Positions 1,806 through 11,306 of a stretch of 11,306 nucleotides of DNA are shown here, piece by piece. The notes beneath the pieces were generated by a model. It saw only the letters and a list, made by a program, of their open reading frames with translations. It did not search any database and was not told the DNA's origin. The position numbers and the translations under genes are program-made. How positions within the stretch are numbered: position 1 is the stretch's first letter; each line of letters opens with the position of its first letter. The DNA is from an uncultured archaeon (GTDB taxonomy: Archaea; Asgardarchaeota; Heimdallarchaeia; Heimdallarchaeales; Heimdallarchaeaceae): positions 1-11,306 of the forward strand of contig CAZJUB010000084.1 of assembly GCA_964549075.1 (NCBI GenBank), read 5' to 3'.

Positions 1806-1809
1806 GTGA
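1804..1809 (+). promoter_or_regulatory. Shine-Dalgarno AGGTGA overlapping the oppD stop; favours ATG 1815 as the oppF start
   Basis: TTTAGGTGAAAAAAATG: AGGTGA lies 5 nt before ATG 1815 and matches the archaeal GGAGGTGA-type motif. Confidence 0.6.
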
Positions 1810-1814
1810 AAAAA

Positions 1815-3038
1815 ATGGGTAGTTCAGAATCTTTTATCGAAAGACTTGCTTCTAAACAAGAGGCAAAAGGTCTTCTAGCAGATCGTATTAGAACAAAAGA
1901 GATGGGAGAAGACGTTATTTTAGATGTAATAAACTTGAGAAAATTCTTTGATATTCCTGTGCCTTTTGAAACCACTTGGTTTATGATTGCATTTGTTGGA
2001 GCACTAGTATTGTTCGCATTTTACCAGCTTTATGGTTTAATCGTTATTGGTGCAATCATTGTTCTGTACTTTGTCTTACCTTACATTCCACCATTTAACA
2101 AACGACCTCGAGTAGCGCATCTTAAAGCGGTTGATGGTATCAGTATACAAATCAAGAAAGGTAAGATTGTAGGACTAGTTGGTGAATCAGGTTGTGGAAA
2201 GAGTACTGCAGCTAAGACTATTATCAGATTGCTTGAACCTACATCTGGTGCGGTTTATTTCAAAGGAATTGATATTAATCGTTTAACCTCTGAGGAAATG
2301 AAAGAAATCAGAAGACATCTACAGATTGTATTTCAAGATCCTTATGCTTCTCTAAATCCTCGTGCAACAGCTCATGATATTATCATCGAACCTTTTGACA
2401 TTCATGGTGTTGCTTCAGGAGATGAAGCTAGTTACAGAGTTCTTACACTTCTGAAAGATGTAGGGCTTGCACCTCATCATGCTTATCGTTATCCTCATGA
2501 ATTCAGTGGAGGACAGAGACAGAGATTAGGAATCGCAAGAGCTTTAGCATTAGAACCTGACTTTATTGTGATGGACGAACCAGTCTCAAACCTCGATGTA
2601 TCTGTTCGTGCTGCTATCATCCAACTAATCCTCGAACTACAGAGAAAAATGGGTTTGACTTATCTGTTCATTGCTCATGATTTATCTCTAGTAAAAATCC
2701 TCTGTGATGAGGTTAATGTAATGTATTTAGGAAAGATTATGGAAGCTGGAACTAGTGATGAAATTTTCGAATCAATGATGCACCCCTATACTAAGGCTTT
2801 GATTTCTGCAGTACCAATTGCAGACCCAACAAAACGATCGAAGAAAATCTTCCTTACAGGAGATATTCCTACTCCAATTAATCCACCTCCAGGATGTAAG
2901 TTTCAAACAAGATGCCCGTTAGTTTCTGACGTGTGTAGAGTTGAAGAACCACCAGCAAGATGGTATTCTGAGAGTCATGTAGCTTACTGTCATAACATTG
3001 AAGGTGGAGAATCAAGTCCAGATTTCTATAAACAATAA
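1815..3038 (+). CDS. oppF: Oligopeptide/dipeptide ABC transporter ATP-binding subunit (OppF/DppF family) with an inserted hydrophobic hairpin
   Basis: LKAVDGIS, Walker A GESGCGKST, Q-loop VFQDPYASLNPR, YPHEFSGGQRQR, Walker B VMDEP, IAHDL, HPYT, C-terminal CKFQTRC...C...CH. Alternative GTG start at 1806. A ~37-residue uncharged hydrophobic stretch is encoded at nt 1977-2087. Confidence 0.93.
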   Translation: MGSSESFIERLASKQEAKGLLADRIRTKEMGEDVILDVINLRKFFDIPVPFETTWFMIAFVGALVLFAFYQLYGLIVIGAIIVLYFVLPYIPPFNKRPRVAHLKAVDGISIQIKKGKIVGLVGESGCGKSTAAKTIIRLLEPTSGAVYFKGIDINRLTSEEMKEIRRHLQIVFQDPYASLNPRATAHDIIIEPFDIHGVASGDEASYRVLTLLKDVGLAPHHAYRYPHEFSGGQRQRLGIARALALEPDFIVMDEPVSNLDVSVRAAIIQLILELQRKMGLTYLFIAHDLSLVKILCDEVNVMYLGKIMEAGTSDEIFESMMHPYTKALISAVPIADPTKRSKKIFLTGDIPTPINPPPGCKFQTRCPLVSDVCRVEEPPARWYSESHVAYCHNIEGGESSPDFYKQ

Positions 3039-3160: not shown

Positions 3161-3913
3161 ATGAGTAGAGTTAATCTTGAATCAGCTCAAAACAACATAG
3201 AACGATTGTCGAATAATCTTAATGAATTACAGCAGATGCTATCTAGTAAGAGTGATGAGCTGAGCGCAAAAATCAGAGAATTTAATGATGTTCTCACTTC
3301 CTTCTTCAGAGAAGCAGATGAAAAAACCCAATCATTCAATAAGGAAGAGGACAGAAGGAGAACTAATAATGCAGAATTAGATCAGCTTAATAACAAACTC
3401 CAAGAACTGACCGTTAAAAAGGATATTTTACAATCCGAAATAGCTAGTAAACAAAGGGATATCGAGCAATTAAGTGCTTTAGTGCTTGAACGGGAGAAAT
3501 TACGAACAGAAGCTAGTTTGCAAGTTGATTCGCTTACTGAAAGAATTTCTAATTTTAATAGAAAAATAGAAGAGACAGATGTTCTCGCCAATGCTCTAGT
3601 AGAAGAAACCAAAGAGCAAACAAGAACACTTGAAATCAAAAATGTTGAATTAACTAATCAATATAATAGGATAGTTACACGCGCTAAATCCTTAGAGTAT
3701 CTGATTAAAAAAGACATCGTTATGCTTCCCGAAATTCAAGTTCTTCGCAGTTTGAATACTCCGGGCATTGATACTTTAGATAATCTTCGAAAAACCTCTG
3801 GAGTTTCAGAAGAAGTAATCAGAAAAATATTGCAAGATCTAGCACGACGAGAAATTGTTGCTTATGACCCATCTACTGGAAGAATCCAGCTTTTAACAAG
3901 GATTGATATTTAG
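3161..3913 (+). CDS. Coiled-coil protein with C-terminal winged-helix (wHTH) domain, paralog A; function unknown
   Basis: GAGAGGT RBS at 3146-3152. Residues ~1-180 are Pro-free, E/K/L/N/Q-rich heptads. Residues ~190-250 (PEIQVLRSL..TLDNLRKTSGVSEEVIRKILQDLARREIVAYDPSTGRIQL) fit three helices plus a beta-wing. Confidence 0.85.
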   Translation: MSRVNLESAQNNIERLSNNLNELQQMLSSKSDELSAKIREFNDVLTSFFREADEKTQSFNKEEDRRRTNNAELDQLNNKLQELTVKKDILQSEIASKQRDIEQLSALVLEREKLRTEASLQVDSLTERISNFNRKIEETDVLANALVEETKEQTRTLEIKNVELTNQYNRIVTRAKSLEYLIKKDIVMLPEIQVLRSLNTPGIDTLDNLRKTSGVSEEVIRKILQDLARREIVAYDPSTGRIQLLTRIDI

Positions 3914-3924
3914 GAGGAATGAAG

Positions 3925-4677
3925 ATGTCAATAGAAAAACTTAATGAAATAATGAACGACCTGAAGACAGGTATAGAAGAATATGCATCCCGATCTTCTT
4001 CAACTATTGTTAATTCTAAGGCAATTATTGATTCAACAGCTAATGATGTTAAAGCAATTCCAGAATATCTTCTAACTCTCCAGAATTCTATAAATGAAAT
4101 TCAAAGAAGTAACAATGAATTAGAAGAAAAAATAGCAAATGTCAAACAAGCTACTGATACTGTTACTACAGAAATAGAAATTAATGAGAGTAATAAAAGC
4201 GACCTTTTAGAAACAGAAAGAAAGAAACGAGCTCAAAAAGAAGATTTAGAGAGAGAGATATCTGAGCTCCAAGAAAAGAAAGTTCAACTTGACAATGAAT
4301 TTAACGAAGTAGCTGCCATCTCATCTAGAAAGGAGCAAGAATATAATCAATTACAGATTAGCTCTAAAGAAGAAATAACAAGAATAAATCAACAAATAAG
4401 TGAAGCTACTACTAGGGTTAAACAAGCTGAATCAGAGAACAAATTAATTGTTTATCTGATGGATTCGGGATTAATGGATGTTCCTGAAGCTGAAGTGGTT
4501 GCTATAGTTTCCTCCTATCCTAATGGTTTGAAGTTAGATGAAATTAAGCAGAAAGTCAACATGCCACCGGTAAGAGTCCAACCGACTATTAACAACCTCC
4601 TTGAAACAGTTTTAGAGTACGATATTCCTTCTGATTCTTATAGAATTATTGAGACAATTAGAAAAGAATTTTTGTAA
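3925..4677 (+). CDS. Coiled-coil protein with C-terminal winged-helix domain, paralog B; function unknown
   Basis: AGGAGG RBS at 3912-3917, 7 nt before ATG 3925 (alternative ATG 3919). Long coiled coil, then PEAEVVAIV..LKLDEIKQKVNMPPVRVQPTINNLL.TVLEYDIPSDSYRI, which aligns by eye with paralog A. Confidence 0.85.
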   Translation: MSIEKLNEIMNDLKTGIEEYASRSSSTIVNSKAIIDSTANDVKAIPEYLLTLQNSINEIQRSNNELEEKIANVKQATDTVTTEIEINESNKSDLLETERKKRAQKEDLEREISELQEKKVQLDNEFNEVAAISSRKEQEYNQLQISSKEEITRINQQISEATTRVKQAESENKLIVYLMDSGLMDVPEAEVVAIVSSYPNGLKLDEIKQKVNMPPVRVQPTINNLLETVLEYDIPSDSYRIIETIRKEFL

Positions 4678-4748: not shown

Positions 4749-6191
<1,443 letters not shown>

Positions 6192-6200
6192 TTCAGAAAG

Positions 6201-6228
6201 ATAGGAAAATCCTATTACTCTTTTTTTT
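6201..6228 (+). terminator. Small hairpin plus T8 between the convergent gdhA and dikinase-like genes
   Basis: ATAGGA-AAA-TCCTAT (6201-6215), then T8 at 6221-6228, which lies inside the last codons of the opposite gene. Confidence 0.5.
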
Positions 6229-9190
6229 CTTCTTGCTTTATTATCATTCCTTCTTTATTTTTAGCATCAATTCTTACTATAAGTGGTTCTTCTAAACTCA
6301 CATGATTCACATATTTCAGCTCATGTTTTGGAGTTTTAGATTTTAGCCAATCCCAATCAATGAAGTGATTTTCTTGGTTGTGTTTTATATAAAAATACCC
6401 GATATTAGCTGTGACTATGTTATGAAAGAAATGAGTACCTTGCGAGAAATCTACAGTAAAATCTTTAAGTGAAGTTTCAATGATTGCTCTAGTACCACTA
6501 ATGTTGCTCCACTTTACAGGAATACCTAAGAACCTATCAGCTGTTCCCCATCGTCCAAATCCAATTAGGAGATATGGTTTGTCTTCTTTGGTCAACAAAC
6601 TATTCAAATTATCTATTTCTTCAACCATTTCTTGAGTTTGAGTTTTATCGAATGTCTCTGGTTTAACATATACAATATCTCTGATGTCTTTTCTAAGCAA
6701 GTTACCAGAAACATGGTTAGAGTAAGCTAAAATTTGACTCATATCAACTGAGCCATAATCTTCAGTTAAGAGGACTTCTTGTTGTAAGAATGGACGTATT
6801 TGTAGAATAGAAAAAACATTTTTCTCGTTAGGTAGTTTTTTGAAATTCCCTGCAAATTCTATTTCAATTGAAGAACCAAGTGCTCTTTCTCCAATTTTTA
6901 GGATTCTTTCAACCAATTCTGCTAAGGGGAAAATTGAATGTTTTAATTGTTGGCTAAATGTAATCACGGGAGAGCCTTCTCCAAAAAAACCCTCTCTTAA
7001 AGTATCAGATTCAAAATCATATGAATCCGCAATTTTTGTTAAAGCTTTATCCTTTATTGCATCAGAAAGATTCAATCTCTCTATGTAAGGATCATCATTT
7101 AAAATATCAAATTCTTTTTTAGTTAAATCAATTCCATAATAATACTTTTGACTCTGTTCAAGAAGTATATCAGGAGTTGAGAAAAAGTTAATTTTTGGAT
7201 ACCTAGGACAAAAACGAACAGAGGCTTCACCTTCTACAATAGTTTTTCCAAGACCTAAAGCGATGTGAGCTATACGATCTTCTGATTTCATATAATCTCC
7301 AAACGGATAGTAATTGTAAGAAGAAGCAGTTCCTGAAAAATCAGGATAGAATCGTTTATTATGTTCTTGTCCTACAACTTCTTGAATAACAACCGCCATC
7401 TTGGATTCTTCTACAGTTTGTTGAATTGTCTCAGCATAAGACTTCGCTAATTTCAAGAATTGAGATGCATAAACCAATTTTATTGCAGTGCAAAGTTGTT
7501 TAACCCTATTTTTTTTATCTACCTGATTGTTTGGTATCATATAGGTATCAAAAATTCCAGCAAATGGTTGATAAGCTGAGTCTTCAAGAAGGCTAGAAGA
7601 TCTTATTGCTAAAGGTCCTTTTAAGTCAGTCAACAAAAACTGAAAATCAGCTATAATTGAATCAGAAAGTTTAGCTTCAACAAATTTTCTTTTAACCTTA
7701 TCATCACTTGCATCAGATAAGGCAAATTTGTATAGATTGTTTTCCTCCATGAATTTATCATACTCATCGGTTCCAATGACGATGGTTTTCGGGATTTCTA
7801 CTGAGACATCTTTGAATTCAGTATCTACCATAAAAGAATTCAAAAGAAACATAAGAAAGGCAATACCTCTCCCTTTACCTCCTAATGAACCAGGTCTCAA
7901 ACGTGTGAACAAGATATCAGGATGATAATTTTCACGTGAAAAATCGTTGATTATACCTTTTGTTTTTTCAATAACAAGTTCATTAATCGTCTTCAATAAA
8001 AAGTCTTTAAGCTCTTCTTTTGTGAACTCAGACACCTTTCGAGGTTTAAGTGTTTCAGCAATTTCAAATTCTCCTCTCGCGTTTAACCAGTTAGAAAAGT
8101 GATCATTTTTACCATGAAAAACCAGAGAATCGACTGGAACTTCTGATAGTTCATTATAGAAGGTTATAACATCGTTAGCTTTACCGAAAACTTCTCCGTC
8201 TTGATTTCGAAAGATAAAGTCACCAAAGCCCACATAATCAAGAAGCCACCTACGTAAGTCCCACATCATACCATGTAATCTCTTGTTAATGAAAAAACAC
8301 CCCATCTCTTCAGCTTCATCCCTATAAAATTCTTTATTAGATTGGAGGACTATTGGTAGGTTGATATTTTCTTCTTTTATCTTCTTTGCAAATAGAAAAC
8401 CAGCATCTTTGTTGAGTTTACCATCAACGGGGAATTCTATATCTGAAATTACTCCCATCAAATAATCTTTGTATCGTTCATAGTAGGAAAGAGCCTCTTC
8501 ATAGGTTTCTGCTAAAAGTATTTTTGGTCTTATTCGCATTTTCAAAAGATCTTGAAAATCATTAGTTCCTTCGCTTAACAATCGGTGTGTTTGTCGCATG
8601 ATTTCGCCATAAATTTCAGGAAGGAGAAGAGAATAAAATCGGATAGAATCATCTACAAATATGAAAACTCTGACATTTGCATGTTGAGTATCATAATCTG
8701 CATTAAATTTATCTTCAAGATGTTTAATGATAGCAACAAAAATCTTGGAGTCACCATTCCAGACAAAAACACGATCGATTCCTTTTCTCTTTTCATATTC
8801 AGGGAGATACTTTATTTCAACAACACTATTCAATAAAAGTATAACAGGGATATCTTTTATTGATTTTACATTAGCTCCAAATGAAAAAGCATCCATATCA
8901 CCCAGTCTTCGCATAGTTATAACTAAGTCAAAATCATGCTCTTCTAAAAGATCGAGAGCTTCATTTGCAGAAGAAACACGAGTAATTCTTGGTAGGGTTC
9001 TTAGATTCAAATTCTGAAATTCTTCATATATTTGATCTGATAAACGACCATCTTCTTCCAACATGAAACTATCATAGATACTAGAAACAAGAAGAACATT
9101 TCTCATTCTTTTACTCATCAATTCATAGAAAATTTTGTATTTAGGCTTGTACTCCAAGAAGAAGCTCTCTGCTTGTTGATGTGGTGTCAT
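6215..9190 (-). CDS. Receiver-domain-containing PEP/pyruvate-binding (PPDK_N ATP-grasp) domain protein; not a canonical PEP synthase
   Basis: N-terminal REC-like domain (NVLLVS..FDLVITM..IPVILL); second REC (FIFVDD180-181, VISD250IEFP, LPIVLQS, FFINK); HxxxxHFSNWL motif; ATP-grasp motifs SLGGK439GRG, LAIRSSSLLED, FAG, MAVVIQE, GLG, IEIEFA, LQIRP; C-terminal GRWG...SQGTH920FF. No PEP-utilising TIM barrel. GGAG RBS at 9198-9201. Confidence 0.88.
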   Translation of the reverse strand: MTPHQQAESFFLEYKPKYKIFYELMSKRMRNVLLVSSIYDSFMLEEDGRLSDQIYEEFQNLNLRTLPRITRVSSANEALDLLEEHDFDLVITMRRLGDMDAFSFGANVKSIKDIPVILLLNSVVEIKYLPEYEKRKGIDRVFVWNGDSKIFVAIIKHLEDKFNADYDTQHANVRVFIFVDDSIRFYSLLLPEIYGEIMRQTHRLLSEGTNDFQDLLKMRIRPKILLAETYEEALSYYERYKDYLMGVISDIEFPVDGKLNKDAGFLFAKKIKEENINLPIVLQSNKEFYRDEAEEMGCFFINKRLHGMMWDLRRWLLDYVGFGDFIFRNQDGEVFGKANDVITFYNELSEVPVDSLVFHGKNDHFSNWLNARGEFEIAETLKPRKVSEFTKEELKDFLLKTINELVIEKTKGIINDFSRENYHPDILFTRLRPGSLGGKGRGIAFLMFLLNSFMVDTEFKDVSVEIPKTIVIGTDEYDKFMEENNLYKFALSDASDDKVKRKFVEAKLSDSIIADFQFLLTDLKGPLAIRSSSLLEDSAYQPFAGIFDTYMIPNNQVDKKNRVKQLCTAIKLVYASQFLKLAKSYAETIQQTVEESKMAVVIQEVVGQEHNKRFYPDFSGTASSYNYYPFGDYMKSEDRIAHIALGLGKTIVEGEASVRFCPRYPKINFFSTPDILLEQSQKYYYGIDLTKKEFDILNDDPYIERLNLSDAIKDKALTKIADSYDFESDTLREGFFGEGSPVITFSQQLKHSIFPLAELVERILKIGERALGSSIEIEFAGNFKKLPNEKNVFSILQIRPFLQQEVLLTEDYGSVDMSQILAYSNHVSGNLLRKDIRDIVYVKPETFDKTQTQEMVEEIDNLNSLLTKEDKPYLLIGFGRWGTADRFLGIPVKWSNISGTRAIIETSLKDFTVDFSQGTHFFHNIVTANIGYFYIKHNQENHFIDWDWLKSKTPKHELKYVNHVSLEEPLIVRIDAKNKEGMIIKQEEKKE

Positions 9191-9240
9191 CTTTATTCTC
9201 CGGATTATGAAGTGTTTTACAATAACGAATAGGGGACTCT

Positions 9241-9250
9241 AAATTTAAAT
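9241..9250 (-). promoter_or_regulatory. Candidate TATA box (ATTTAAATTT) for the dikinase-like gene
   Basis: TTTAAA about 55 bp upstream of ATG 9190, immediately downstream of the MFS terminator. Confidence 0.35.
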
Positions 9251-9256
9251 ATGTTG

Positions 9257-9285
9257 AAAAAAAAGAAATGAGAAAGATCTCATTT
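9257..9285 (-). terminator. Hairpin plus U-tract terminator of the MFS gene
   Basis: 8-bp stem AAATGAGA-aaga-TCTCATTT (9266-9285), followed on the - strand by T8 (A-run 9257-9264). Confidence 0.65.
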
Positions 9286-10633
9286 ATTTCGCTAACACTA
9301 GATCATCTTCTTCTACACCAGTTCTTCTGACAAACATTGTACAAACTAAAGCAGCTACGAAAAAGATAATACAATATAGAAATAGAACATTAATATTTGT
9401 TGCATCAAAAATCGCCCCAGCGATAACTGGAGAAGCAATTGCTGATAGAGCTGAGAAGAAATAATAGAGACCTGTATATGTCCCCAATCTAGCTGTACCT
9501 GCAAGTTCCCAAACAACTACGATGCTATTGATATTTACAAATGCCCAGAACATTCCGCCAAAGAATAGCAGTATTCCATCAATAATAATTTCCCAAGTCC
9601 ATTTAAACGGTAGAAAATTAACTAAAACACGTAGAGAAGGAATGGGTACTAGTGAAAAGATGACTAGGGGGATCATTATCACAATCAATCCTATTAATCC
9701 TATAATCATCGTTTTCTTTCGACCTATTTTCTTAGCAATTAACCCAGCAGGAATTGCAAATATGATGAATGTAAGTGAGTATATACCTAGCAACATACTT
9801 GCATCGGCAGGATTAGTAATATTGACAAGATTTGCATTTGTAGCATATAGACTAAACCAAGTTTCAATAGCATTGAAAGCAAAAAACCAGAACAAGATTG
9901 CAAAAAGTATGAAAATCAGACTTCTATCTTTGTCCATAAACATATTTTTGACCGCATCTACTAATCTCACTTTTTCTGTTTCATCAACATCTTCTCTTTC
10001 TTTGTGTTCTCTAATATTAAAGTAGAGAGCAACTAAGCACAATACCATAACTATTGATACTATTACAAAAGATAAAGTAGGATTGATTTTATAAATTGCA
10101 GCCATGACGAAAAGTCCAATTAGAGCTCCAACTCCACCAAGTAAGTTAATAACCGCATTTCCTCTACTTCGATAATCTTTTGGCACCAAATCTGGCATTA
10201 ATGCAACTACAGGGGCTCGGTAAAGTGCCATAGAGATATTGAAACCACATATGACAATGATCAACAACCATAAGGTTTGATGAACTGTTGGTATCAATCC
10301 AAAGAAGAATGCAGCTATAGGGACACCTATCAAGATAAATGGCATCCTTCGTCCAAATTTTGTCCATATATTATCAGACACTTTTCCTATCCATGGTTGC
10401 ATCGTTATGGCTGCTATATTATCAAGTACCATTATTATACCTATGATTAGTTGTCCATTATCTAGATATCCTAACAGACTGTCCAAATATTTTGGTACAT
10501 AAATGTTAAACATCGACCATGTTATTGCTGTAGTGAAAAAACCTAAACCGATTACAGCAGTGTAAAGGTAGGAAAAACTCTTATGTTCTCTCGCATCAAT
10601 ATAATTCTGTTTAATTCTATTAAAGAATGACAT
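9284..10633 (-). CDS. MFS transporter, SLC45/sucrose-maltose (GPH-like) family
   Basis: About 12 hydrophobic segments; motif A variant QPWIGKVSDNIWTKFGRRMPF; RAPVVALMPDL; second repeat AGLIAKKIGRKK; GTYTGLYY. The sugar substrate is inferred from family only. Confidence 0.9.
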   Translation of the reverse strand: MSFFNRIKQNYIDAREHKSFSYLYTAVIGLGFFTTAITWSMFNIYVPKYLDSLLGYLDNGQLIIGIIMVLDNIAAITMQPWIGKVSDNIWTKFGRRMPFILIGVPIAAFFFGLIPTVHQTLWLLIIVICGFNISMALYRAPVVALMPDLVPKDYRSRGNAVINLLGGVGALIGLFVMAAIYKINPTLSFVIVSIVMVLCLVALYFNIREHKEREDVDETEKVRLVDAVKNMFMDKDRSLIFILFAILFWFFAFNAIETWFSLYATNANLVNITNPADASMLLGIYSLTFIIFAIPAGLIAKKIGRKKTMIIGLIGLIVIMIPLVIFSLVPIPSLRVLVNFLPFKWTWEIIIDGILLFFGGMFWAFVNINSIVVVWELAGTARLGTYTGLYYFFSALSAIASPVIAGAIFDATNINVLFLYCIIFFVAALVCTMFVRRTGVEEDDLVLAK

Positions 10634-10874: not shown

Positions 10875-11306
10875 ATGGATCCTGAGAATCGTGGGAATAA
10901 CACCATAATTCATGATGATGATTTCAAGGAATCAGGTGCTATTATTCCATTGTCTCAACGAGATGCACTTATTGTTGAGATGTATGAAGATGGTTTATCT
11001 ACATATGAAATTTCAGAGCAATTAGATATTAATCGACACACAATCTCCAGAGTCCTCAAAGAAAATGAGATAGAAACCAGAACAATTGCTGATTATCACA
11101 AGTTTAAACATAATGATATTGAGCTGTTATTCAAAGAAGGAAAAAGCAAACACGAGATAGCTAAAGAGTTAGGAATAACATACTATACTGTAAGAAAAGT
11201 ACTTGAAGATAAAGGATTGATTCTCAATAAGAAAGATAGAGAAACAGTGGCCATTGCTCGTTATATCCAAATGAAAAATAAAGGCTATGAAAACGAGTAT
11301 ATAGCG
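10875..11306 (+). CDS. Tandem helix-turn-helix repeat DNA-binding protein (3'-truncated; absent from the ORF track)
   Basis: ATG 10875 is open to the window end (144 codons): MDPENRGNN...IVEMYEDGLSTYEISRALDINRHTISRVLKENEI...IELLFKEGKSKHEIAKELGITYYTVRKVLEDKGL...YIQMKNKGYENEYIA. Two full HTH units and the start of a third. TTTTATAT box near 10833-10840. Confidence 0.85.
   Translation, partial: MDPENRGNNTIIHDDDFKESGAIIPLSQRDALIVEMYEDGLSTYEISEQLDINRHTISRVLKENEIETRTIADYHKFKHNDIELLFKEGKSKHEIAKELGITYYTVRKVLEDKGLILNKKDRETVAIARYIQMKNKGYENEYIA

Follow-up and report, generated by a model that had tools for sequence, protein, structure and literature searches.

A receiver-bearing protein with a dikinase-type ATP-grasp encoded beside glutamate dehydrogenase in a Heimdallarchaeia contig and its relatives

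What does a protein phosphorylate if it carries both the receivers of two-component signalling and the ATP-binding module of a dikinase? The question is raised by a 991-aa protein, here called X, encoded in an 11,306-nucleotide contig from an uncultured archaeon of the Heimdallarchaeia (CAZJUB010000084.1; hereafter the window, which is the entire contig C84 of assembly GCA_964549075.1, 89.7% complete). A first-pass annotation, made from the letters of the window, had seen in X a pseudo-receiver, a receiver, a small domain with the motif HxxxxHFSNWL, a complete ATP-grasp and a C-terminal domain with the motif SQGTH920FF, and had suggested that phosphate passes from H920 to D250 of X's own receiver or to another protein. 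All five parts were located in the 991-aa open reading frame, and the anatomy was confirmed in every particular. The statement that a substrate domain is missing also stands: Pfam and NCBIfam scans of X revealed no phosphoenolpyruvate (PEP)/pyruvate barrel, no rifampin-binding domain and no other substrate domain. Pfam reported PPDK_N and Response_reg only, and neither HisKA nor HATPase_c, the domains of GHKL histidine kinases, was reported at E<=0.1. To this anatomy we add a context absent from the earlier description, a neighbouring glutamate dehydrogenase (GDH) gene. We read X, at a little short of even confidence, as a receiver-gated, dikinase-derived His-phosphotransfer regulator that works on or with GDH. 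The features on which the argument turns are as follows.

6215..9190, minus strand: gene for X, 991 aa, a single open reading frame with the order REC(pseudo)-REC-DUF5752-ATP-grasp-His-domain
8687..9133, minus strand: REC1, pseudo-receiver, residues 20-168, from a sub-cut-off Pfam match and the family profile
8237..8686, minus strand: REC2, receiver with intact phospho-site, residues 169-318 (D180, D181, D250, S284, F300, K303), from alignment and Response_reg matches in relatives
8441..8443, minus strand: codon of D250, predicted phospho-acceptor Asp (D in 69/75 and 234/245)
7901..8236, minus strand: middle domain, DUF5752-like, residues 319-430, with HxxxxHFSNWL, from PF19027 matches in relatives
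6776..7900, minus strand: PPDK_N-type ATP-grasp, residues 431-805 (Pfam PF01326)
7874-7876, minus strand: codon of K439 in the ATP-grasp (K in 75/75)
6218..6775, minus strand: end domain, residues 806-991 (186 aa), with GxGRWG, E905 and SQGTH920FF, from an AlphaFold2 (AF2) model and VIA-align
6431..6433, minus strand: codon of H920, candidate phospho-His (H in 74/75 and 242/245)
4851..6191, plus strand: gdhA, NADP-type GDH (NF006929), convergent with X, the two stop codons 23 nt apart

Counts out of 75 are columns in an alignment of 75 full-length homologues, 31-78% identical to X; counts out of 245 refer to stored family members in which both the D250 and the H920 columns are aligned. The three residues singled out in the first-pass annotation, H920, D250 and K439, are all conserved (74, 69 and 75 of the 75). 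In a comparison with a relative of 85% identity, in which Ks approaches saturation, Ka/Ks is 0.044 for X overall and 0.023 for REC1, which points to strong purifying selection on all domains of X, the pseudo-receiver included.

Relatives of X are full-length proteins of 30-96% identity, and the closest are annotated as Heimdall-group Asgard archaea. At E<1e-30, X is matched by 1,042 representatives of 50% identity clusters, and a relative is present in at least 940 species genomes from many bacterial phyla and from Heimdall, Hermod and Thermoplasmatota archaea. The gdhA product of the window scores 751.5 bits to NF006929 against a cut-off of 536, and its place beside X recurs widely. When the neighbours at the best 80 diverse loci were clustered, GDH emerged as the sole conserved partner, at 48 loci, with the next cluster at 6 loci. 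Scored by tblastn, GDH lies beside X at 51 of these 80 loci and at 42 of the 59 with full flanks (at least 2.5 kb on either side), usually directly adjacent. The adjacency survives changes of orientation, being convergent in the window and divergent or co-directional elsewhere; of 58 neighbouring GDH copies, 34 precede X and 10 follow it in the same direction, and 14 lie on the other strand. Tandem gdh-X-gdh-X arrangements occur at several loci. Among 121 sampled Asgard genomes the end domain was found in 23, including all 18 sampled genomes of the five Heimdall-class families other than the window's own; of the 19 genomes that match X strongly, 11 have gdhA adjoining it.

A second class of paralogues has no receivers and consists of PPDK_N, the His domain and NTP_transf_2 (PF01909); it accounts for at least 593 further matches. 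This class pairs with a different isoenzyme. Receiver-type X goes with NADP-GdhA (NF006929), and the receiver-less class adjoins a second GDH type (31-34% identical to GdhA, nearest model NF040817) at 61 of 79 loci and at 40 of the 43 with full flanks. Trees of X and GdhA from 48 pairs, obtained by a quick search and left unrooted, both place an Asgard clade with the same FCB-group bacteria, with starred support. The match fits joint inheritance or transfer of the pair.

Other observations weigh against a fixed bond between X and GDH. Eight of the 19 X-positive Asgard genomes show no gdhA adjacency, two of the eight being closed genomes with X and gdhA about 115 kb apart; MFS transporters, electron-transfer flavoprotein (ETF) genes, aldehyde dehydrogenase and peptidases are the neighbours of the non-adjacent Asgard X genes. 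In a Bacteroidales clade GDH was found at only 5 of 80 loci and at 1 of 52 with full flanks. A possible tie between X and trans-acting genes reported downstream of gdhA in Bacteroides thetaiotaomicron was dropped, given how rarely the Bacteroidales relatives adjoin GDH; BT_1971 of that species is a catalase. Many Asgard genomes carry the same GdhA type without X, and in one family GDH is present in 16 of 17 genomes and X in 0 of 17. Partnered and unpartnered GdhA differ consistently only at S98 (T in the other group) and Q180 (A in the other group), and no obvious acceptor site in GdhA emerges from this comparison. Nor do gene fusions come to the aid of the linkage: 3 of 104 long GDH proteins carry PPDK_N, each with only 58-63% of GDH, and these were set aside as merged or deleted gene calls. 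An apparent fusion reading frame at another locus (L048) was a frame artefact.

Two side observations concern GDH. One protein of 869 aa (P0491; five member sequences on three contigs) runs from the first 190 positions of the ATP-grasp profile straight into a GDH C-terminal domain; this recurrent chimera may have arisen by a genuine deletion or by faulty assembly. The window's genome also encodes a second, archaeal-type GDH outside the window (G000:C28:11223-12329, plus strand; E 1.1e-60 to the GdhA profile). No companion resembling X turned up for this second GDH: the genome has a single end-domain match.

The ATP-grasp of X is complete. Pfam PPDK_N (PF01326) spans residues 435-803 (E 2.4e-33, 116 bits against a cut-off of 27). 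The columns K439, R530, E536, D537 and Q797 are invariant in the 75 homologues, E778 is kept in 74 and R799 in 73; we take these seven to be the PPDK catalytic residues. Matches in NCBIfam and in the sequences of the PDB are confined to the ATP-grasp of PEP synthases, PigC/RedH and rifampin phosphotransferase; among solved structures the last is the closest in sequence (family profile, E 1.5e-11). A PPDK_N search of the window's genome returned X as the sole match. The genome also gave no match to PF00391 (PEP-utilizers), a family matched in 28 of 31 sampled Asgard genomes. On these two results, no canonical PEP synthase or PPDK was found in the assembled part of the genome.

The first-pass annotation had taken the C-terminal domain for a swivel domain like that of PPDK, with H920 as its phospho-His. 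The pattern of conservation is that of a working module. G918, R880 and E905 are kept in all 75 homologues, H920 in 74 and S/T919 in 70; the core at residues 871-930 is conserved to the same degree as the catalytic stretch of the ATP-grasp, and the linker between the two domains (residues 801-825) is poorly conserved. Sequence tests of the swivel assignment were all negative, and they tell against the role that we propose for the end domain. PF00391 at E<=1 was matched by 0 of 36 family members, an hhalign comparison of the end domain with 24 canonical Asgard PEPS/PPDK swivel domains gave a probability of 0.3%, and a PDB profile search with the end domain returned nothing below E 0.5. In forced alignments to swivel domains the His was paired with a His in 0 of 25; 8 of the 25 covered the C-terminal hairpin alone, with negative scores.

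The fold told a different story. The AF2 model of the end domain (mean pLDDT 90.3, pTM 0.89) shows a swivelling beta/beta/alpha fold in which H920, residue 115 of the model, lies in the first turn of the helix 114-122; an extra helix (model residues 44-63) is absent from the PPDK His domain. We compared the model with 48,161 chains by VIA-align, a fold search independent of Foldseek in which a Z below 8 is middling by the tool's own scale. The DRTGG domain 2ioj ranked first (Z 7.1), followed by residues 378-511 of maize PPDK (1vbg; Z 6.9, root-mean-square deviation 3.3 over 120 aligned residues), the isolated PPDK phosphoryl-carrier domain 2fm4 (Z 6.8), residues 756-867 of rifampin phosphotransferase (5hv1; Z 6.7, deviation 3.7 over 112 residues), the C-terminal domain of pyruvate kinase (2e28; Z 6.5) and, at ranks 6 to 8, three Enzyme I N-domains (Z 5.7-6.1). 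Seven of these eight are phospho-His domains or related mobile domains of PEP utilisers. Other swivelling beta/beta/alpha folds, namely aconitase and the apical domains of chaperonins and the transferrin receptor, occupied lower ranks with Z 5-6. A second VIA-align examination agreed and placed 1vbh among the PPDK matches as well. Two further results count against the assignment: no Z reaches 8, which leaves it on middling scores, and Foldseek with the same model found nothing significant (best E 0.024). The swivel claim is favoured by the predicted fold and by the resemblance to PPDK, rifampin phosphotransferase and Enzyme I (Z 5.7-6.9), and it failed in every sequence test and in Foldseek. 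With caution, we conclude that the end domain appears to share the swivel fold and that its nearest examples are phospho-His carriers; membership of a carrier family goes beyond this evidence. A search for free-standing end-domain proteins yielded 182 short matches, nearly all on contigs of 1-3 kb, and these were rejected as fragments.

The N-terminal part of X would provide the input. In REC1, Pfam Response_reg matches residues 62-119 with 27.7 bits, below the cut-off of 30.2, and the profile of the 75 homologues matches solved receivers across positions 51-162 (3hv2, E 3.9e-6). Its acceptor position holds T92/M93 (M in 43 of 75) and no Asp, and REC1 is for that reason a pseudo-receiver. REC2 of X gives a Pfam E-value of only 0.12 by itself; among 34 family members, 25 have a REC2 that matches Response_reg at E<=1, the best at 7.5e-6. 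It has the full set of residues expected of a response regulator: the acidic pocket (E/D180 in 75 of 75, D181 in 65), the acceptor Asp (D250 in 69), the Ser/Thr (S/T284 in 71) and the Lys (K303 in 73). According to one account of receiver switch residues (PMC9981736), those at the positions of S284 and F300 do not discriminate relay intermediates from regulators. The middle domain is DUF5752-like. PF19027 is matched by 35 of 35 members (best 3.8e-11), X's own match stands at E 0.0021 and 17.9 bits, below the cut-off of 23, and W368 is kept in all 75 homologues. Receiver-less paralogues align to X only from residues 381-434 onward. Small stand-alone DUF5752-like reading frames of 113-177 aa also occur, in 17 of the 121 sampled genomes and in the same Heimdall-class families as X (e.g., L216:1495-1848, minus strand); some of the matches have an internal stop codon, and none was found in the window's own genome. 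A DUF5752 family search gave no match in B. thetaiotaomicron, a negative that carries no weight since the same search overlooked the domain of X as well.

From what is established for X, namely domain anatomy, conservation, gene linkage and, as a predicted model, the fold of the end domain, we infer the scheme below, all of its chemistry and its target included. The PPDK-type ATP-grasp would load a phosphoryl group from ATP onto H920 of the tethered swivel-fold end domain. The charged end domain would then act on an outside partner, most likely the neighbouring NADP-type GdhA, through phosphotransfer or phospho-dependent binding, with a separate GDH isoenzyme for each paralogue class. A conventional histidine kinase would supply the input by phosphorylating D250 of REC2, which would turn the module on or off, with the pseudo-receiver and the DUF5752-like domain transmitting the signal or providing a scaffold.

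Would H920 instead phosphorylate D250 of X itself, or a separate response regulator, and make X a histidine kinase of a non-GHKL kind, as the first-pass annotation had it? We regard this as very unlikely. The joint presence of H920 and D250 in 232 of the 245 members speaks for it, as does the phospho-His-carrier fold of the end domain, which some carriers such as Enzyme I share while passing phosphate to proteins; the presence of a histidine kinase gene beside X at only 9 of 80 loci counts on the same side. The exceptions argue otherwise. D250 is replaced in 11 members (N in five, S in two, and C, E, Q and T), mostly together with a degenerate acidic pocket, and 10 of the 11 retain H920, R880, E905 and K439; H920 is missing in only 3 of 245. 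Receiver-less paralogues within the same loci keep the pattern GPGRWGS...E...SFGTHFFQD. Across the 79 loci of that class, all 76 end-domain matches have the His, R880 and E905, and 49 of the 76 have no receiver upstream, a count to be read with the reservation that one of the six patterns used to fetch the loci contains that His. Because members lacking D250 and receiver-less paralogues both keep the His, the His module has a role that does not need D250. Ordinary partners for REC2 are at hand as well: the window's genome has six HATPase_c matches above the cut-off, and ordinary receivers. Kinase-like genes adjoin X at 9 of 80 and 5 of 80 loci. Transfer from H920 to X's own D250 is accordingly unlikely to be the main route, and X is probably not a self-contained His-Asp relay. 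For the other acceptor named in the first-pass annotation, another protein, the neighbouring GDH is the obvious candidate.

X might also be a metabolic dikinase whose ATP-grasp and H920 pass phosphate to a small molecule from glutamate or 2-oxoglutarate metabolism; the DUF5752-like domain or the end domain (R880, E905) would bind the substrate, and the receivers would do no more than tune flux. All characterised relatives that score and combine an ATP-grasp with a C-terminal His domain (rifampin phosphotransferase, PEPS, PigC and RedH) use small molecules, the invariant polar residues R880 and E905 exceed what a plain carrier has, and the setting is one of amino-acid and peptide catabolism, as seen in the Opp-type ATPases of the window and, among relatives, in ETF, aldehyde dehydrogenase and an M13 peptidase. 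We nonetheless think this unlikely: X lacks a substrate-binding domain of the kind formed by the PEP barrel or the rifampin-binding domain, the receiver-less paralogues are without most of the DUF5752 domain, and a shared metabolite would not require that paralogue classes match different GDH isoenzymes or that gdh-X pairs stand in tandem. A scaffold that senses nucleotides, binding ATP or AMP together with GDH as an energy sensor without any phosphotransfer and using H920 for structure or ligand binding, seems to us very unlikely. VadK is proposed to act partly through competitive binding to partner enzymes (PMC13400623), and the phospho-His on X is a prediction; the catalytic columns of the ATP-grasp and the G-S/T-H motif, on the other hand, are as conserved as in active dikinases, which is unexpected for a mere binder. 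We therefore keep to a His-phosphotransfer regulator of GDH as the preferred reading of X.

The remaining features of the window, with others near X, are these.

744-1805: OppD-like ABC ATPase, partner of the OppF/DppF-like gene
1806-3038, plus strand: OppF/DppF-like ABC ATPase, matching its family only from residue 104 onward
3161-3913 and 3919-4677, plus strand: two adjacent 250-aa coiled-coil proteins with weak SMC-like matches
9198-9201, minus strand: GGAG upstream of X, read from the sequence
9241..9250, minus strand: A/T-rich TATA-like box ATTTAAATTT, read from the sequence, about 55 nt before the ATG of X and after the T-run that follows the MFS gene
9284..10633, minus strand: MFS transporter (Pfam MFS_1, E 1.8e-50), its gene preceding X in the same direction
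10875-11306, plus strand: repeated helix-turn-helix protein that runs off the window end (HTH_23, E 1.8e-13)

The box ATTTAAATTT is a putative promoter of X. The MFS transporter is a lineage-restricted second neighbour: it is 51% identical (E 1e-151) to an MFS protein encoded next to X in a different genus of its family, where gdhA lies about 115 kb off, and no counterpart was matched among the 80 diverse loci. At its N-terminus the OppF/DppF-like protein is extended by a segment containing a long hydrophobic run, a feature not usual in soluble ATPase subunits. The two coiled-coil proteins show no detectable mutual similarity (E 0.26). For the multi-helix-turn-helix protein the nearest NCBIfam model is the CRISPR repeat-binding Cbp1 (53 bits against a cut-off of 140), and an Rfam scan of the window gave no match. 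In one Heimdall family, X is immediately preceded, in the same direction, by ETF beta and alpha genes (L301:5077-6992, L302:5038-6952), and in one of these two loci an M13 peptidase gene follows X. ETF, the M13 peptidase and the Opp-type ATPases of the window suggest a setting of amino-acid catabolism. GltD-like proteins with Fer4_20 and Pyr_redox_2 adjoin X at 6 of the 80 diverse loci (e.g., L013:10645-12120). A 1,234-aa fusion of a GltD-like module with a molybdopterin oxidoreductase lies upstream of X at 26 of the 80 Bacteroidales loci (e.g., L095:772-4476).

GDH stands at the junction of carbon and nitrogen metabolism, and to our knowledge its post-translational control in prokaryotes is little known outside a few lineages. 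By joining two-component signalling to a dikinase-type ATP module beside GDH genes, X offers a concrete hypothesis. In its widest form, which we advance tentatively and regard as rather doubtful, X and its paralogues would represent an unrecognised post-translational control of carbon and nitrogen flow, in which dikinase-derived enzymes charge a remodelled phospho-His carrier from ATP and switch specific GDH isoenzymes, one paralogue class for each. If so, a receiver-gated class would serve NADP-GdhA and a nucleotidyltransferase-bearing class the second GDH type; the system would be to GDH what GlnE/GlnD control is to glutamine synthetase, and its range would take in at least 940 species, from many bacterial phyla and from Heimdall-group Asgard archaea. 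What the present analysis adds is the record of losses of D250 and H920, the pairing of paralogue class with GDH type, the Bacteroidales exception, and the negative sequence tests of the end domain set against the positive fold test.

How does X compare with known systems? Its family has been noticed before. Table S3 of Galperin, Makarova, Wolf and Koonin 2018 (PMC5847659) has rows for HeimAB125_05440 and HeimC2_11830 and lists the former as REC-PPDK; HeimAB125_05440 (P0014) is 78% identical to X over the full length, which makes REC-PPDK the same protein family. That entry is a listing of domain architecture, and the part of the source seen makes no mention of the second receiver, the DUF5752 domain, the end domain, the GDH linkage or a function. 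Our literature searches for the family of X or its function found no describing paper beyond this listing, and a search for DUF5752/PF19027 found none.

The nearest functional precedent is VadK (Rv1127c) of mycobacteria, reported in 2026. According to that report, VadK is a barrel-less PPDK relative of about 490 aa that retains the PPDK His domain, has no pyruvate/PEP domain, autophosphorylates on His422 and binds methylcitrate-cycle enzymes encoded near its own gene (PMC13400623). On that description X resembles VadK at the level of design: a PPDK-type ATP-binding domain and a His domain, no barrel, and a gene beside that of a metabolic enzyme. Unlike VadK, X has receivers and a DUF5752 domain, its His domain is unrecognisable by sequence, and its neighbour is GDH where the described VadK partners are methylcitrate-cycle enzymes. 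The remark in the first-pass annotation that no such protein is known to be biochemically characterised now has to be read with VadK as a precedent. If our reading of X is correct, it would carry the idea behind VadK, the re-use of dikinases as regulatory histidine kinases of metabolic enzymes, beyond actinobacteria into many other phyla and into archaea.

Rifampin phosphotransferase (RPH; 5hv1/5fbs) has the same order as X, an N-terminal ATP-grasp and a C-terminal swivel His domain, but a large rifampin-binding domain separates the two in RPH only, and receivers occur in X only. PPDK and PEP synthase share the PPDK_N ATP-grasp with X, and the end domain matches the PPDK carrier with Z 6.8-6.9 (1vbg, 2fm4, 1vbh). 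Compared with these enzymes, X is without the PEP/pyruvate TIM barrel and without PF00391, and it has the extra helix together with GxGRWG, E905 and SQG(S/T)HFF. Enzyme I of the phosphotransferase system, whose N-domains have Z 5.7-6.1 to the end domain of X, can be likened to X only in how it would work: it has a swivel-fold His domain and hands its phosphate to the protein HPr. Enzyme I is charged by PEP, whereas X would be charged by its ATP-grasp, and a sequence relation between the two was not found. GlnE and GlnD, dedicated modifying enzymes of glutamine synthetase, a central enzyme of nitrogen assimilation, provide an analogy. Among the paralogues of X, those without receivers possess a nucleotidyltransferase domain (PF01909), and covalent modification of GDH by X would be the hypothetical counterpart of that control.

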